Of a stretch of DNA of 64,000 nt, positions 4,378 through 26,024 are shown piece by piece. The notes under the pieces were generated by a model. The model was not told the DNA's origin. It saw only the letters and a list, made by a program, of their open reading frames with translations, and searched no databases. The stretch covers positions 1,312,001-1,376,000 of the forward strand of contig OY821641.1 in assembly GCA_963555995.3 (NCBI GenBank), read 5' to 3'. Each line of letters opens with the position of its first letter. Position 1 is the stretch's first letter. The position numbers and the translations under genes are program-made. This DNA comes from Vicinamibacteria bacterium (GTDB lineage Bacteria > Acidobacteriota > Vicinamibacteria > Marinacidobacterales > Marinacidobacteraceae).

Positions 4378-6468
4378 TCAGGGTTCGAGCTGGCGGAGGA
4401 GGTTCTGCGCTTCCTGGGCGAACGGGTCCCCGGCGGGGACCGCGCGCAGCAGTTCGCGGGCCTCCGGGATGCGCTGCTGGGAGAGCCGGGTCACGCCCAT
4501 GAAGAAGCGGATGCCGGGCTGCTCGGGGTCGAGGTGGTAGCTCTGCTCGAACGCCCGACCGGCGGCGGCGGGGTCTCCGTCGAGGACGTGGAGCCGCCCG
4601 AGGTTGAGCTGCTGCGGCGCGTCGTCGGCGAAGAAGTTCCCCCGGATCGCGTGGAGGCGCTTCGCCAGCTCGAAGTCATCCCCCGCCGCGTCCGGCAGGT
4701 CGCGGACGCCCAGGTTCAGGAGGGAGATCGCCGCGTTCATCCGCACCGAGCGCCGTTCGTCCTGGATGCGCGCGACGAGTGCTTCGCGGATCTCCGGCGC
4801 TTCCCGTTCGGCCGTCTCGCCGAGCTTCAGCGCGGCCACCGCCCGCACCAGCGGGTGGGCGTCGCCGGCGGCGGCGAGCAGCGCCCGGCTCGCGGGCTCG
4901 CGGGTCTCCGCGTCCGCCAGGTAGCGGCCGAGGTGTCCCGCCGCGTTCGCCCGGTTGATGGGGCCCTCGCCTGCGTCGGCGGAGATGGCGAGCAGCAGGT
5001 CCAGCGCCTCCCGGCTCCGTTCCCGCGCGCCGGTGTAGGCGTCGGCGCGGCGCTCGATCTTCTTCCGGCGCGGCGTTTCTCCCCACCACTCGTCCATGCG
5101 GGCCGACGCCCATGCGGGGCTCTCGGAAGCGTGGCACTCGTTGCAGGCGTTCGGGACCCCGTAGCGCGCGGTATTGCGCGGCGAGGGGATCGAGATGCTG
5201 TGGTCGCGCATCTTCGCCCGGATGCTGGTGACGCTGCGGGGCATGTGGCACTCGACGCACGAGCTTCCCTCGCTCGCGGCCGGGTGGAAGGTGTGGGCGG
5301 TGAGGTCGTTCCCGATGGCTTCGTGGCAGCCGGTGCAGAGCGCGTTGTTCGTGGGAAGCAACTGTTCGTTCCGCTCGATGTCCGGCCGGTGGGGGTCGAG
5401 GTGGCACCCGGTGCAGGTGGCGCCGCCCTCGACGAAGCACTCGCTCTGCCAGATGCCGAGGGTGTTGGTGGAGAAGCGCCGGGTCTTCCCGTCGGGATAC
5501 CAGGTGGGGTCCTCGGAGGGTTCCTGGGTGTATTCGAGGATCGGGAAGAAGAAGTCGAAGTAGTTGTCGCCGGCGGCGAACCCGAACGCCATCTGGTCGC
5601 GGAACGAGTGGCACTGGGCGCAGACCATCGAGTTCGTCCGGTGGTCCAGACGGGTCTGGAGGACGATATGGAGGTCGGGATCGTCGCCGTAGGTGTCGAG
5701 GTTCTGGTACTTGTCCACGTGCCGGCTGCCCGGGCCGTGGCAGCGCTCGCAGGTGGTCCCGAAGTCGAGCCAGGTGGTGTCGTAGCGGTCTTCGCCGGGA
5801 CGGAAGCCCTTCATCTGGTCGCTGACGTGGCAGCCGAAACAGTTCTTGTTCCAGAGCTGCACCGGGATGATCCCCTCCGCCTGGTCGGGGGCCGCGATCT
5901 CCAGGTTGTGGAACCACTCCCGGCGGAGCACGTCCCAGGTCGGCGGCAGGACGATCACCCGGCCGTCGTCGAGGGTCGTGAGGTAGTGCTGAATGCGGCG
6001 GTTGCCGAGGGTGTAGTCCACCTGGTGCTCGACCGGCTCACCGGTGAAGAAGGACTCGGTGATGAAGTACTTCGAGCCGACCTGCCGGATCCGGTACTCC
6101 TCTCCGCGTAGGGTGAGCCGTTCCTGGGAGAAGTCGCCGCTGACCTGGCCCGGGACCGCGGGCTGCACCATCTTCGAGTGGCGGGATGAAGTCCAGGCGT
6201 CGTGGGCGCTCTCGTGACACAGGACGCATTCGCCGGACCCCACCATCATCGCGGGCTGCTCGGGGAGGGGCGGCGGGACCGGCTGCGCCGCCTGAGCGGC
6301 GACCGCTTCTGCGGTGCCGGTCTGAAGACCGGCGTTCCCGGGGGCTGGCGGAACCGGCTGCGCCGGCTGGATCGAGGCCGAGGCGATGGGAGGCGACCAG
6401 GCGTTGGTGGCGAACAACCCGAGCACAGCGAGGCTGGCGGCGCCGGCCAAGGCGAGCGTGAACCTCAC
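4378..6468 (-). CDS. Secreted octaheme cytochrome c with HEAT and TPR C-terminus
   Basis: Signal peptide; 8 CxxCH (CVLCH, CFGCH, CERCH, CAQCH, CTGCH x2, CVECH, CNECH); HEAT/TPR-like helices; GTGA overlap with upstream gene. Confidence 0.85.
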   Translation of the reverse strand: MRFTLALAGAASLAVLGLFATNAWSPPIASASIQPAQPVPPAPGNAGLQTGTAEAVAAQAAQPVPPPLPEQPAMMVGSGECVLCHESAHDAWTSSRHSKMVQPAVPGQVSGDFSQERLTLRGEEYRIRQVGSKYFITESFFTGEPVEHQVDYTLGNRRIQHYLTTLDDGRVIVLPPTWDVLRREWFHNLEIAAPDQAEGIIPVQLWNKNCFGCHVSDQMKGFRPGEDRYDTTWLDFGTTCERCHGPGSRHVDKYQNLDTYGDDPDLHIVLQTRLDHRTNSMVCAQCHSFRDQMAFGFAAGDNYFDFFFPILEYTQEPSEDPTWYPDGKTRRFSTNTLGIWQSECFVEGGATCTGCHLDPHRPDIERNEQLLPTNNALCTGCHEAIGNDLTAHTFHPAASEGSSCVECHMPRSVTSIRAKMRDHSISIPSPRNTARYGVPNACNECHASESPAWASARMDEWWGETPRRKKIERRADAYTGARERSREALDLLLAISADAGEGPINRANAAGHLGRYLADAETREPASRALLAAAGDAHPLVRAVAALKLGETAEREAPEIREALVARIQDERRSVRMNAAISLLNLGVRDLPDAAGDDFELAKRLHAIRGNFFADDAPQQLNLGRLHVLDGDPAAAGRAFEQSYHLDPEQPGIRFFMGVTRLSQQRIPEARELLRAVPAGDPFAQEAQNLLRQLEP
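6315..6338 (-). repeat. REP-like palindrome in frame inside the cytochrome c gene
   Basis: ggaacgccggtcttcagaccggca on minus strand, one mismatch to copies at 58267 and 60633; encodes GNAGLQTG in a Pro/Ala linker. Confidence 0.75.
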
Positions 6469-21295: not shown

Positions 21296-21434
21296 GGGGA
21301 CGGGCCGGCGCCGGGTCCATGGTCACGAACCTTCATGCGATACTTGAAGCGCAATGTAGCAAATCCGGTTGATCGTTGCCATTCAAGGCCACGGCAGCCA
21401 TCGCCGGAGAGCCGGGCCGAGCGGAGCGTTCGGG

Positions 21435-21440
21435 TAGCAT
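21435..21440 (+). promoter_or_regulatory. Putative -10 box of a leaderless transcript
   Basis: TAGCAT, then 7 nt, then ATG at 21448; no SD. Confidence 0.45.
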
Positions 21441-21447
21441 TTCCCTC

Positions 21448-22647
21448 ATGGAACCTGTTCCCCCGCTGTCGCGACGGCGGTTTCTCGGCGCCGTTCCCGT
21501 TGCCGCCGGCGCGAGCGCGCTGGCTCTCGAGCGCGCCGCCGGGCAGGGCGGGGGCGCCGTCTTCGGGAAGAGCGGCCTGCGGATCCTGAGCGAGCGGCCG
21601 GTGAACGCCGAGACCCTGGTCGCCGACCTCGATCCCCGCCACACGCCCAACGACAAGCACTTCGTTCGAAACAACGGCGGCGTGCCGGAGCGGGCGCTCT
21701 CCGGAAGCCTCGACGGCTGGTCCCTCCGCATCGACGGCGAGGTGGGCAATGTCCTGAATCTCTCGCTTGACGATCTCAAGTCGCGCTTCGAGAACGTGAG
21801 CCGGGCTCTCGTGCTCGAATGCGCGGGAAACGGCAGGGCGGCCTTCCAGCCGGGGGCGTCGGGCAACCAGTGGTGGCTCGGCGCGGTCGGCTGCGCGCGC
21901 TACACGGGCGTCCGCCTTGGCGACGTGCTGGATGCGGCCGGTGTGCTCGACACCGCCGTCTACGTCGCCTACTACGGCGAGGATCCCCACCTGAGCGGGA
22001 ATCCCGAAGAAGTCCCGATCTCCCGGGGCGTCCCGCTCTCCAAGGCCATGGACGAGTCCACCCTGCTCGCCTGGGAAATGAACGGCGAACCCCTGCCTCC
22101 GCACCACGGCTTCCCGCTCCGGGTGGTCGCCCCGGGCTTTCCCGCCTCGGCGAGCGGGAAGTGGCTGCGCCGCCTCTGGGTCCGGGACCGGGTCCACGAC
22201 GGCGCCAAGATGATGGGCTACTCCTACCGGGTGCCGCGGTACCCGGTCGCGCCCGGAACCGACGTGCCCGAGGAGGACATGGAGATCATCGGTCCCATGC
22301 CGGTGAAGTCCATCATCACCCGTCCCGAGACGGGCGTCCGCCACGCCGGCGGCGGGCCGCTCGCGATCCGGGGTTGGGCGTGGGCCGGTGACGGGCCGGT
22401 GAGCGCGGTGCACCTGAGCGCCGACTTCGGGACCACCTGGCTCCCGTGTCAGCTCGAGGAACCCGAGAACCCGTTCGCGTGGCAGCGGTTCGAGGGAACC
22501 ATCGCCTTCGACATTCCCGGCCACTACGAACTCTGGGCGCGCGCGACGGACCACCAGGGACGCCAGCAGCCCATGGTCGTGCCCGGCTGGAACCCGCGCG
22601 GCTACCTGAACAACGCGATGCACCGGATCGCGGTCACGGTGCTGTGA
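21448..22647 (+). CDS. Sulfite oxidase family molybdoenzyme (SorA/SorT-like), Tat-exported
   Basis: SRRRFLG twin-arginine; HFVRNN, LECAGNGR Mo-Cys, HGFPLR, SGKWL, WNPRGYLNN. Confidence 0.9.
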   Translation: MEPVPPLSRRRFLGAVPVAAGASALALERAAGQGGGAVFGKSGLRILSERPVNAETLVADLDPRHTPNDKHFVRNNGGVPERALSGSLDGWSLRIDGEVGNVLNLSLDDLKSRFENVSRALVLECAGNGRAAFQPGASGNQWWLGAVGCARYTGVRLGDVLDAAGVLDTAVYVAYYGEDPHLSGNPEEVPISRGVPLSKAMDESTLLAWEMNGEPLPPHHGFPLRVVAPGFPASASGKWLRRLWVRDRVHDGAKMMGYSYRVPRYPVAPGTDVPEEDMEIIGPMPVKSIITRPETGVRHAGGGPLAIRGWAWAGDGPVSAVHLSADFGTTWLPCQLEEPENPFAWQRFEGTIAFDIPGHYELWARATDHQGRQQPMVVPGWNPRGYLNNAMHRIAVTVL

Positions 22648-22648
22648 G

Positions 22649-23053
22649 ATGAAACCTCTGCACCTCTTCCTTGTTGTCGCGCTGCTCCCGGCGGCCGCAT
22701 CCGCGGGCTCGGAGGAACGCCGCGTCCCGGCGCTTGCCTCCGGGCAGGAGAGCGACGGCCGGGCTCTCATTGACGAGAACTGCCTCTACTGCCACGACGA
22801 CAGCTACATCAGGGCGCTGAACCTCCCCCGTGAAGAGTGGGAAGGGGTGCTCGACATGATGATCGGGATGGGCATGCCGCCGCTCGATCCGGAAGTGCAG
22901 GAGCAGATCCTCGACTACCTCGAGGAAGAGCACGGCCCCCGGGAGAGCTCCCCGTCGCCCGGAGCCGGGGCGTCCGCGGACGCGGAGACGGAGGTCCTCC
23001 CCTGGGCGTTTCCACGCTACCGCCCCAACCCGCTCTACTGGCGGGAGCGTTAG
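22649..23053 (+). CDS. Monoheme cytochrome c (SorB-like partner)
   Basis: Signal peptide; CLYCH; 1 nt after the sulfite oxidase stop. Confidence 0.8.
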   Translation: MKPLHLFLVVALLPAAASAGSEERRVPALASGQESDGRALIDENCLYCHDDSYIRALNLPREEWEGVLDMMIGMGMPPLDPEVQEQILDYLEEEHGPRESSPSPGAGASADAETEVLPWAFPRYRPNPLYWRER

Positions 23054-23054
23054 C

Positions 23055-23077
23055 GGAGCGCCGGCCTCCGGCCGGCA
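23055..23077 (+). repeat. REP-like palindrome
   Basis: ggagcgccggcctccggccggca, same architecture as the other copies. Confidence 0.65.
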
Positions 23078-23115
23078 TCGCCGACCGCAGGGAGGCGAAA
23101 CCGCAACCCTCGGGT

Positions 23116-23149
23116 GGGACCAGCGAGCCTTCGGGCTCCCCGCGGTCCC
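23116..23149. terminator. Stable hairpin between convergent genes
   Basis: gggacc..gagcc-TTCG-ggctc..ggtccc with a C(UUCG)G tetraloop. Confidence 0.45.
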
Positions 23150-23150
23150 G

Positions 23151-23729
23151 CTACCTCAGCGGGATGTCCGTGAACTCGTGCTCGTAGATCGCCTCGCGGA
23201 TCTCTTCGGGACTCGCGCCGTCGTCGTGCATTTCCTTGGCCAGGAGGACCTCCTGGAGACAGGTGCTTCAAGTGGCGGCGTGGTTGTCCACGTAGCAGTC
23301 GAGCAGGCTCCCGTGATCTTCGGACGCGCCGTGACAGCCGCACAGACACGGCAACTGGACGAGCACCTCGGGGATTTCCTTGGCGATGGCGTAGGTCGTC
23401 TGCAGCGTCTCGTTCTCGTAGGTGTTCGGCGGAAGCGTCACCGGGAAGGGACGCGCCTCCTCCACCGAGTCGTAGTAGGGGAACGGCTTGGCCGCCTGGT
23501 TTCCCAGGTCGTACGCGGCGGCGGACAGGTCCGAAGCCGGCTGCAGGCCGCTCTCCACCGTCGAGTCCTCGAAGGCGGCGACGAAGAAGACGGCGGCGCC
23601 CGCCACCAACAGGCCGATCGCGAGGACCGGTGCGGCGCCCCACCCCTTCCGGGTGGCGGCGGGCTTGGCGGTGGTCGCTGGAGCCGCGGGTTTCCCGGCT
23701 CGGGAAGGTGGTGTTCGGCGCTTCTTCAT
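23151..23729 (-). CDS. PCYCGC-motif family membrane protein, probable selenoprotein (Sec at TGA 23270-23268, UxxC motif)
   Basis: LPCLCGC..HGSLLDCY..DNHAAT-TGA-STCLQE; frame continues 38 sense codons to TAG (KEMHDDGASPEEIREAIY), matching the family C-terminus. Confidence 0.8.
23240..23256 (-). promoter_or_regulatory. Bacterial SECIS-like hairpin
   Basis: Minus strand CCAGGAG-GUC-CUCCUGG: perfect 7-bp stem with GU in the loop, starting 11 nt after the UGA. Confidence 0.7.
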
Positions 23730-23939
23730 AACGAGGCCATATCTTAACGGCCGGTGGCAAAACCCACGCGGCGTTCGACGGGCGATGCATCCCGCCGGAA
23801 CCGCGCCTCTGCGAGGCGCTCATCGTTGCGTTTCGGTCGGAATACACTCGGTATTCCGCCCTCACGCGCCTTGTCAGCCGGGCGCCTCACCCGTCTCGGC
23901 GCTCACGTGGGTTTCACCACCGGCCGTTAACCCCTCCCC

Positions 23940-26024
23940 ATGCCCCGCCGACTCTGGCTCTCCGGCGCCGCGGTCTTCCTCGCGGCGATGCTCCTGTTCG
24001 TGGTGCAGCCGCTCGCCGCGCGCAGCCTGCTCCCTTGGTACGGCGGGGCTCCGATGGTGTGGGCGGTCGCGCTCTTCTTCTTCCAGGCGGTGCTGCTCGG
24101 GGGATACCTCTACGCGCACCTGCTGGTGACGCGTCTTGCCCCGCGGGTCCAGTTGGCGGTCCACGGCGCTCTCCTCGCCCTCGCCGCGCTGGCCAGCCTG
24201 CCGCCGCTCCCCGCCTCCGGCTGGGCGCCGCGGGGCGGGGAAGCGCCCGCCGGGTGGATCCTCCTCACGCTCCTGGTCACGCTGGGACCCGCCTTCTTCG
24301 CGCTGGCGGCCACCACGCCGTTGGTGTCGGCCTGGGTGGCCCGCGCGCGACCTTCGGCGGCCGGCGACCCGGGAGCGACCGGCGTCTATCGGCTCTATGC
24401 CCTCTCGAACGCCGGTTCGCTGATCGGCCTCGCGCTCTATCCGCTGCTGCTCGAGCCCCTCCTCGGGCTGGGCGGCCAGGGACGGCTATGGGCGGCCGGG
24501 TTCGTGGCGTTCGCCGTGCTCACTTTCCTGGCGGGCGCCCTTTCCGTGCGGGTCTCCGCCGGGGGTGCGGACCGCGCCGCGCCGCCCGTCCGCGCCGGAC
24601 TCGGTGACTTCCACGGTTCGGCGTTCCTGCTGGCCGCGGTCGGCTCGCTGGCGCTGGTGGCGGTCACGACCCATCTCACCCGCGACGTGGCGGCGGTTCC
24701 GTTCCTGTGGATCGCGCCCCTCGCCCTCTACCTGCTCACGTTCATCCTCGCGTTCCGGGGCGGCGATCCGTATCCGAGGCGGCTCCTCGCGCCGCTGCTG
24801 CTCGTTTCGGTGGCGGCGTGCTTCTACGTCTGGTTCCAGGACATCACCTACGGCCTCGACCGCGCCCTGCTCGCCCACGCGGTGGCCGCGCTCGGGTTCC
24901 TGTTCACCGGCTGCTGGGTGATCCATGGGGAGATCGCCCGGCGGAAGCCCGCCCCGTCCCGTCTCACCGGCTTCTACCTGTCCATGACGGCGGGAGGCGC
25001 GCTCGGGGGGCTCCTCGCGTCCATCGGCAGTCCGCTGCTCTTTCCGAACGTCTGGGAGTACCCGCTCGCGCTGGTGCTCGCCGTGATGGTCGCCTTTCGC
25101 GTCGCCACGCCGCCCCGGGACGCCTTCCGGTCGCTCGCCCGGAAGGCCGTCCCCGCGGCCACCCTCGGGGTCGCCATCGCCATCAGTGCGCTCGAACACC
25201 GGCGCCCGCTGATCGCGACCCGGAACTTCTTCGGCGTCGTGCGCGTCATGGAGGCCTACCCGGGCACCCCGGACTGGCGTCGCGACATGTGGCACGGCGG
25301 GATCGCGCATGGCTCGCAGTGGTTCGCTCCCGGACGCCGCCGCGAGCCCACCCTCTACTACTACGAGGGGACGGGCATCGAGGCGGTGCTGAACCGCCAC
25401 CCCAACCGGCGGCTGGTACGGCCCCTCCGGGTCGCCGTCGTCGGGCTCGGGACCGGGTCCATCGTCGTCCACGGGCGGCGGGGGGACCTGTTCCGGTTCT
25501 ACGAGCTCGACCCCCAGGTGGCGCAGGCGGCGCGCGACTACTTCACCTTCCTCGCCGACGCGCCGGCGGAGGTGGAGGTCGTGCTCGGTGACGGCCGGCT
25601 GAGCCTGCTCCGGGAGGAAAGCGCCGGGGAGGAGAGCTTCGACGTGATCGTGCTCGACGCCTTCGCCGGCGACGCGATCCCGGTCCACCTGCTCACCGCC
25701 GAGGCGTTCGATCTCTACCGGAAGCGGCTGGCCCCGGGCGGCACGATCGCGGTCCACATCTCGAATCGCCACGTGGACCTCGCCCCGGTGATCCGCGCCC
25801 AGGGCCTCCGCCTCGACCTGCTGTCGCTGCTCACGGTGAGCGATCCGGACCCCGACCGCTTCCACTACACGGCGACCTGGGTGGTGCTCAGCCTGAACAC
25901 CGACCTCATCACCGACCCGAGCCTGCTTGGGAGGGCGGAGCCGTGGACGGGAGAAGCCGCCGATCCCGGCGACCGGTTCCTGTGGACCGACGACCACTCC
26001 AACCTGCTGGACGTGCTGCGCTGA
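23940..26024 (+). CDS. Fused MFS-like membrane domain / spermidine synthase-like methyltransferase
   Basis: LLPWYGG..VW, YRLYALSNAGS, VVGLGTG, FYELDP, LGDGRL, DAFAGDAIPVHLLT, WTDDHSN. Confidence 0.9.
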   Translation: MPRRLWLSGAAVFLAAMLLFVVQPLAARSLLPWYGGAPMVWAVALFFFQAVLLGGYLYAHLLVTRLAPRVQLAVHGALLALAALASLPPLPASGWAPRGGEAPAGWILLTLLVTLGPAFFALAATTPLVSAWVARARPSAAGDPGATGVYRLYALSNAGSLIGLALYPLLLEPLLGLGGQGRLWAAGFVAFAVLTFLAGALSVRVSAGGADRAAPPVRAGLGDFHGSAFLLAAVGSLALVAVTTHLTRDVAAVPFLWIAPLALYLLTFILAFRGGDPYPRRLLAPLLLVSVAACFYVWFQDITYGLDRALLAHAVAALGFLFTGCWVIHGEIARRKPAPSRLTGFYLSMTAGGALGGLLASIGSPLLFPNVWEYPLALVLAVMVAFRVATPPRDAFRSLARKAVPAATLGVAIAISALEHRRPLIATRNFFGVVRVMEAYPGTPDWRRDMWHGGIAHGSQWFAPGRRREPTLYYYEGTGIEAVLNRHPNRRLVRPLRVAVVGLGTGSIVVHGRRGDLFRFYELDPQVAQAARDYFTFLADAPAEVEVVLGDGRLSLLREESAGEESFDVIVLDAFAGDAIPVHLLTAEAFDLYRKRLAPGGTIAVHISNRHVDLAPVIRAQGLRLDLLSLLTVSDPDPDRFHYTATWVVLSLNTDLITDPSLLGRAEPWTGEAADPGDRFLWTDDHSNLLDVLR

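Follow-up and report, generated by a model that had tools for sequence, protein, structure and literature searches.

A predicted membrane-anchored selenoprotein of the CYCXC family in Acidobacteriota and its possible kinship with CcmH

A reverse-strand gene on contig OY821641.1 of a Vicinamibacteria genome (GCA_963555995.3) raises a twofold question: does its protein end at an in-frame TGA or is this codon read as selenocysteine (Sec), and what could such a selenoprotein do? In the window (the whole stretch of DNA that was analysed, 64,000 nucleotides), the standard-code ORF 23729–23268 (−) terminates with ...DNHAAT at TGA 23270–23268. With Sec at this TGA, the frame extends through U-STCLQEVLLAKEMHDDGASPEEIREAIYEHEFTDIPLR as far as TAG 23153–23151 and specifies a protein of 192 residues with the motif U154-S-T-C157, the C-terminal read-through part of which holds the peptide EAIYEHEFTDIPLR. 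Retranslation reproduces exactly the original prediction, in which the ORF ended at this TGA and the frame ran on through HAAT-U-STC to a stop. The features considered below are the following:

23151–23729 (−): coding sequence, ATG 23729 to TAG 23153–23151, for a 192-residue CYCXC/PCYCGC-family protein, with one in-frame TGA
23268–23270 (−): UGA codon, predicted Sec154 (U154-S-T-C157) at the N-terminus of predicted helix 155–169, from comparison and the structural model
23240–23256 (−): predicted SECIS upper stem-loop CCAGGAG-GUC-CUCCUGG, from folding, conservation and the bacterial SECIS constraints
23178–23444 (−): NF041379/PF13798 domain, residues 96–184, with C128, C130, C132, H139, C145, H150, U154 and C157, from profile match and conservation
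23334–23348 (−): CLCGC motif (C128–C132), a lineage variant of CYCXC that aligns with the CcmH cysteine loop by profile, from sequence and profile comparison
23571–23627 (−): predicted single transmembrane anchor, residues 35–53, past a basic N-terminal tail, predicted N-in/C-out (hydropathy 2.69 over 19 residues)
23741–23746 (−): TAAGAT, a −10-like hexamer located 11 nt upstream of the ATG, with no Shine-Dalgarno sequence seen

Reading of the in-frame UGA

Exactly where it had been predicted, the hairpin CCAGGAG-GUC-CUCCUGG lies at 23256–23240 (−), separated from the UGA by 11 nt (AGCACCUGUCU). Checked by hand against the four constraints of the bacterial SECIS consensus (as given in section 5 of PMC13188914), it agrees with all of them, having a 7-bp stem, a 3-nt GUC loop with G in first place, a spacing of 18 nt between UGA and loop and a folding energy of −9.9 kcal/mol. 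The folding energy of the 58-nt region is not better than chance (z = −0.25; 68 of 200 shuffled sequences do no worse), and the genome has a G+C content of 70%. In E. coli fdhF, the SECIS lies 11 nt past the UGA and has GU in its loop, a 17-nt figure likewise being given; a literature search for the detail of 11 nt and a GU loop returned no paper. As in SECIS of the fdhF type, the hairpin is located within the coding region right past the UGA, but its sequence is this gene's own. Genome-wide, Watson-Crick stems of at least 7 bp with a G-first loop, starting 16–20 nt after the stop of coding-like frames, follow 12 of 1471 TGA-ended frames (this gene included), four of 1015 TAG-ended frames and none of 180 ending in TAA. 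An Rfam search over 22900–24000 gave nothing real, and three terminator-like matches were rejected, being located inside the coding sequence.

The original prediction would have failed had the genome lacked sel genes, and all four are present over cut-off: selA (489.7 bits), selB (297.1), selD (247.4) and tRNA-Sec (selC, 69.7). It would likewise have failed if sequencing reads showed TGC or TGT, or if relatives conserved neither the TGA nor the hairpin. Contigs from four of four runs, two of them from RNA libraries and one (X2) possibly from the source sample, contain no alternative letter at the TGA or hairpin over 23190–23340, which rules out a sequencing error at the codon, and an earlier set of four runs likewise showed no alternative letter among the rows listed. 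Near variants of this stretch occur in contigs from sponge metagenomes, and RNA-library contigs of related strains span the gene, which by itself is no proof of expression.

Both the TGA and the hairpin are kept in relatives. Among 40 relatives, the gene was found in 23 of the 24 genomes of the same family, each with one TGA, and in seven of the eight genomes of a sister family, without a stop; the eight genomes of a third family gave no match. All 24 loci of the host's own family (f1) share the TGA and the stop 38 codons later, and the intervening codons are open and conserved in every one, varying chiefly at the third codon position (132/125/311). The six sister-family loci that were fetched all carry TGT or TGC at the UGA column, most of them in the same gene context. 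Comparing such Sec and Cys counterparts, which share one locus, offers a direct way to learn what selenium contributes on the outer side of the membrane. Across the phylum sample, NF041379 matched in 92 of 401 genomes, with a TGA inside the match in 14 besides this genome (a tally that includes the unpublished genome G064). Loci fetched for those 14 genomes have the TGA at the same column, 16 of the 17 TGA copies coming from fetched regions, with the four copies of G298 covered. The four UGA-containing copies in that one genome (L079 and L074) include three nearly identical ones within 10 kb. In the 66%-complete assembly G002 (L030), the orthologue carries a frameshift ahead of the domain and retains the TGA and hairpin. 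The alignment of homologues, as proposed at the outset, pairs the in-frame UGA with Cys at the U154 column and reveals TGA homologues elsewhere, the pattern by which selenoproteins are recognized.

The UGA form occurs only in genomes with selA: this gene is present in 65 of 71 genomes tested, all 37 TGA-form genomes are among the selA-positive ones, and the six without selA carry Cys. Many selA-positive genomes keep the Cys form, including seven of seven in the sister family, and because Cys forms persist in so many Sec-capable genomes, Sec would be a catalytic improvement that the protein can do without. A quick tree of 93 domains calls for 10 U/C changes, at least five of them on well-supported branches; since the tree has no root, gains of Sec are indistinguishable from losses.

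Hairpins across homologues were scored as stems of at least 6 bp with G early in the loop, 16–22 nt downstream. By this definition, which was fixed after the f1 hairpin was known and which was applied to related sequences that are not independent, a hairpin follows 41 of 41 TGA loci versus four of 53 Cys loci and, in a later set of 20 loci, three of three versus two of 17, summing to 44 of 44 TGA homologues versus six of 70 Cys homologues. The hairpins are of two types, each with a compensatory swap, C-G to A-U in the first (CCAGGAG/CUCCUGG to CAAGGAG/CUCCUUG) and G-C to C-G in the second (GUCGCG/CGCGAU to GUCGCC/GGCGAU). Within 23 f1 sequences (this genome and 22 relatives, omitting the frameshifted G002 copy), the hairpin varies at a single position, where L025 has a C-to-A change in the pair that closes the loop. 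Among four-fold-type codons with an invariant amino acid in these sequences, three of three never vary in the hairpin versus none of 11 outside it; with one genome per genus, the figures are three of three versus two of 13. A Bryobacterales homologue with a Cys codon (L154, around 6001–6264) has, at the distance expected of a SECIS, the perfect hairpin CAAGGAG-GUC-CUCCUUG, which may be left over from a Sec-to-Cys reversion.

That the TGA is instead a genuine stop codon, or a nonsense mutation passed down by descent, with the protein ending at residue 153, is very improbable: truncated forms of 153–157 residues in databases, the unexceptional folding of the 58-nt region and the L154 hairpin, which indicates that coding sequence alone can yield such a structure, fit this reading, but the downstream codons are open and conserved, the TGA occurs only on a nearly invariant Cys column, only in selA-positive genomes and always before a hairpin, and truncation would remove two helices that complete the modelled fold. 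The comparison of sequences thus leads us to regard the in-frame UGA as almost certainly read as selenocysteine. Sec incorporation in E. coli fdhF is 30–40% efficient (according to the accessible part of PMC4513850), so the shortened protein may coexist with the full-length form.

Family membership and predicted anatomy

Against NF041379, the 'CYCXC family (seleno)protein' (OS_HP4), the read-through protein scores 100.2 bits versus 61.9 for the truncated one, the cut-off being 90; the truncated protein falls below this naming NCBIfam cut-off because it lacks the 39 residues missed by gene callers that stop at the UGA. The read-through protein also scores 45.3 bits against PF13798 (PCYCGC; gathering cut-off 25) and carries the family motifs as CLCGC, a Y-to-L variant of CYCXC, and C-terminal HAAT-U-ST-C. 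As had been anticipated, standard gene callers shorten the protein: the closest database entries are 153–162 residues long, cover 80% of the query and end at the UGA, and one is labelled just 'hypothetical protein'. With the UGA form in 23 of 23 relatives that have the gene, the read-through frame is an annotation fix for a whole bacterial family.

The CYCXC (OS_HP4) family is tabulated with UxxC and one Sec (in the accessible parts of PMC13188914 and PMC9312934), in line with the statement in the original prediction that Sec forms of the family had already been predicted. The present protein shares both traits and passes both curated cut-offs, but has CLCGC rather than CYCXC, and its host belongs to Acidobacteriota. 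It is therefore a member of a catalogued family of predicted selenoproteins, representing neither a new family nor a new recoding mechanism. The literature searched, as far as its texts were accessible, yielded no published function for PCYCGC, CYCXC, OS_HP4 or PF13798; HP4 is not named in the accessible main text of PMC1976440, nor is the CYCXC family mentioned in the available portions of PMC13326102 and PMC12013277. A search of the ESM Atlas returned only PCYCGC/CYCXC clusters. The gene offers a testable functional lead for this functionally unexplained family.

The original prediction also held the protein to be membrane-anchored and probably extracytoplasmic. This fits the hydrophobic segment 35–53 and the charge asymmetry around it, with nine K/R residues before the segment but no K/R over the next 22 residues, where an acidic linker follows; a hydrophobic N-terminal segment is present in 210 of 224 homologues. 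We infer that one N-terminal helix serves as anchor and that the domain faces the periplasm.

An AlphaFold2 model computed with Cys in place of Sec predicts an all-helical domain (pLDDT 96.2), with helices at about 107–118, 120–123, 143–146, 155–169, 174–182 and 185–188 and with U154 directly before the long helix. Thioredoxin-fold selenoproteins and HMA-type UxxC domains have UxxC at a helix N-terminus, as predicted here, but neither fold applies because the model has no beta strands, the beta-sheet core of the thioredoxin fold included. Searches of solved structures with the protein sequence or a profile gave no match, and Foldseek found none at E 0.001. A designed zinc-induced dimer that topped a wide structure search (48,161 chains; Z 5.1) was set aside as being within chance for helical bundles.

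All eight positions, C128, C130, C132, H139, C145, H150, C/U154 and C157, are occupied in 301 of 312 domains, many of which are near copies. Natural losses are informative as to how these residues may be grouped. Four degenerate second domains of one clade have lost C128 and C157 together, two proteins (P0204 and P0227) have lost C132, H139 and H150 together while keeping C145, and the second domain in L095, judged by eye, keeps only C132, H139, C145 and H150. This pattern suggests two modules, one comprising C128, C130, U154 and C157, and the other C132, H139, C145 and H150. A strict ladder of three disulfides is not fully supported, given that P0204 and P0227 hold C145 without C132. Two families encode a long form consisting of PCYCGC, a CxxCH domain and a degenerate second PCYCGC (L090, L091, L095–L097, L109; P0127), and the long-form genes are located downstream of mfd and a SurA-like gene.

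Relation to CcmH

CcmH, a thiol oxidoreductase that acts on apocytochromes, is a membrane-anchored three-helix protein with a periplasmic helical domain and its cysteines in the loop after helix 1 (as described in the accessible part of PMC3884852). Profile-profile comparison (hhalign) of the PCYCGC core with 31 genomic CcmH domains gave a probability of 93.5% over 56 columns, rising to 95.3% when fusion domains were added (about 92–95% overall), whereas 22 decoy families of neighbour genes reached at most 1.05% and shuffled or reversed columns scored 16–19 versus 36–42. The link depends on having five-cysteine CcmH forms among the domains compared; canonical LRCxxC CcmH alone yielded a short, wrongly registered alignment at 75–77%. 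Profile-to-sequence searches between PCYCGC and CcmH did not reach significance (lowest E-values 0.018 and 0.17, for a database of 20,000), the genome's own CcmH was absent from the 12 best frames when the whole genome was searched with the PCYCGC profile, and PF03918 did not match the read-through protein at E 0.01. At the place aligned with LRCxxC stands LPCLCGC.

Structural comparison places CcmH high, though with matches that are not significant: CcmH ranked second of 25 in Foldseek (E 5.5) and sixth among 48,161 chains, and the model superposes on CcmH structures with Z 3.5 (rmsd 3.8 over 66 residues for 2hl7 and 3.2 over 64 for 2kw0). At least 10 homologues among the 150 representatives listed carry a CcmH-like domain N-terminal to PCYCGC (four by Pfam, 10 by our own profile), and the CcmH-like and PCYCGC domains have common motifs in the order CxCxC, LLDC, C and GxSxxEI. 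Like CcmH/CycL/NrfF (PF03918; PDB 2HL7 and 2KW0), the protein is predicted to have a membrane anchor, a periplasmic helical domain and a cysteine loop, with collinear motifs. It differs from CcmH in having two His, C157 and two loop insertions, in its N-terminal rather than C-terminal anchor and in not lying beside ccmF. Overall, distant homology to CcmH is probable.

The genome's CcmH (C1:349196-349573; L110:1417-1902), beside a CcmF-like gene recognized by motif, is a five-cysteine form (CQCGGC..C....C) without LRCxxC, and 10 of the 31 phylum CcmH domains that were fetched are of this kind. CcmH is present in 31 of 34 family-positive genomes versus 48 of 116 others, by a hand count that ignores kinship and for which the sample was assumed to be G041–G190, the unpublished G064 among them.

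Gene neighbourhood and candidate functions

The gene stands alone, with a divergent gene for a spermidine-synthase-like membrane protein on one side and a convergent SorAB-like pair on the other, and no ccm, dsb or cus neighbour was found at the locus; the loci of the Cys orthologues have the same arrangement. The convergent pair (21376–23053 (+) of the window) encodes a molybdoprotein resembling sulfite dehydrogenase (SorA/SorT-like, scoring below cut-off) and, behind it, a small cytochrome c with one haem. Synteny of the SorA/SorT-like and cytochrome c genes with the gene extends to about 20 of 30 order-level loci, and the convergent orientation rules out an operon with them. The hexamer TAAGAT, TACGAT or TAAAAT occupies the −10-like place in the nine loci, out of 12, whose start was located, and no full sigma-70 match was found upstream of the gene; the arrangement suggests a near-leaderless transcript. 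A 187-bp MITE-like element (23744–23930), bounded by TTAA and with 25-nt terminal inverted repeats, lies 14 bp upstream of the ATG and leaves the hexamer intact. It has 78 genomic matches of at least 150 bp, some in tandem, and is absent here in L010–L016, with a shorter related insert in L018. A further intergenic repeat of about 48 bp (around 23054–23101), with 142 blastn matches in the genome, lies between the convergent gene ends.

Selected neighbour genes were scanned at loci elsewhere. Redox-related neighbours comprise ccmF-ccmH upstream of fused homologues in two related Fidelibacterota loci (L146 and L147; two of 20 loci), dsbB with a DsbA-like gene in L060, a DsbA-like gene in L158, and MauE/DoxX on the same strand in L154 and L157. 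They are outnumbered by genes for CusA/CzcA-type RND proteins (TIGR00914), found in five of 20 loci in one set and two of 40 in another: directly upstream in L107, L148, L149, L155 and L156 (L107 and L155 being Sec forms), two genes upstream in L105 and downstream in L147. Six of these seven score over the cut-off and the seventh is cut by the locus end. CopC/CopD is encoded upstream in L047. At the class level, all 10 loci scanned, Sec and Cys forms alike, have a hybrid histidine kinase gene immediately downstream, and a gene for a FliA-type sigma factor comes after it. As for fusions, one joins a family member to a ResA/TlpA-type redoxin (P0200) and other homologues carry CxxCH domains or motifs, while the search of proteins of 420–2000 residues recovered one fusion, to asparagine synthase.

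The reading that we tentatively favour, at somewhat less than an even chance for the whole chain, is of a membrane-anchored selenoprotein acting as a CcmH-like selenol/thiol reductase for disulfides of exported proteins outside the inner membrane. SelB, loaded with Sec-tRNA, would attach to the GUC-loop hairpin immediately outside the ribosome, so that codon 154 receives Sec. The protein would be held by its one N-terminal helix with the domain in the periplasm, where it would adopt a small all-helical fold, distantly related to CcmH and with insertions, in which U154 is predicted to cap the long helix near the CLCGC loop. Judging from the natural losses, C132, H139, C145 and H150 may have a structural role, as a metal or disulfide site, and C128, C130, U154 and C157 would be the putative reactive centre. 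The selenolate might then attack oxidized or copper-damaged cysteine pairs, for example in apocytochrome CxxCH, and could be re-reduced by a CcmG/TlpA-type redoxin.

The cusA/czcA genes beside family members in seven loci, together with CopC/CopD in L047, would suit a periplasmic chaperone or sink for Cu(I), Ag(I) or another soft metal, working with CusCBA-type efflux or in copper delivery, with Sec154 as a ligand in a Cys3Sec site. The conserved set of six Cys/Sec and two His resembles a metal site equally well, the genome itself holds two cusA/czcA genes over cut-off, and a Parageobacillus lipoprotein member adjoins a gene for an Fe3+-binding protein (in the accessible part of PMC13068155). 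We rate such a metal binder, the main rival, as less likely than the reductase, given that most loci, this one included, are without a metal neighbour, that the all-helical model is unlike HMA or CusF, and that the fusions are to CcmH-like, redoxin and CxxCH domains, with none to metal transporters. The reductase and copper roles may be one job.

Less likely still is a non-enzymatic role, as a redox or metal sensor, for instance in kinase signalling, or as a structural Zn or disulfide module, with the likeness to CcmH reflecting ancestry only. This would account for the kinase gene downstream in all class-level loci scanned and for the finding of no catalytic homologue among the solved structures searched, but the kinase link is seen in a single clade and could be inherited synteny, and a purely structural site would hardly explain why several lineages, with their repeated well-supported U/C changes, have retained Sec and a SECIS.

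A more ambitious version of the favoured reductase reading, doubtful as a whole, would make the entire PCYCGC/CYCXC family an unrecognized branch of the CcmH fold. Under it, the protein would be a periplasmic selenoenzyme on a non-thioredoxin helical scaffold, with a UxxC unlike the pair of thioredoxins and with U154 paired instead with C130 of the CxCxC loop in the C128/C130/U154/C157 centre, that repairs copper-damaged or oxidized cysteines of apocytochromes and other exported proteins, Sec and Cys having been swapped repeatedly across Acidobacteriota.

Four further candidate selenoproteins with similar hairpins were noted in the genome, at C1:3698142 (+), C1:1619913 (+), C1:1621024 (+) and C1:1026209 (−) (loci L141, L142 and L144). 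They comprise an AhpD-like protein (CHYU), an exported AhpC/TSA-type redoxin (WUPFC), an OsmC-like protein (GGUM) and a MerB-like protein (FTUAN). The AhpD-like candidate, which matches TIGR01926 over cut-off, has the same GUC loop as the present hairpin.
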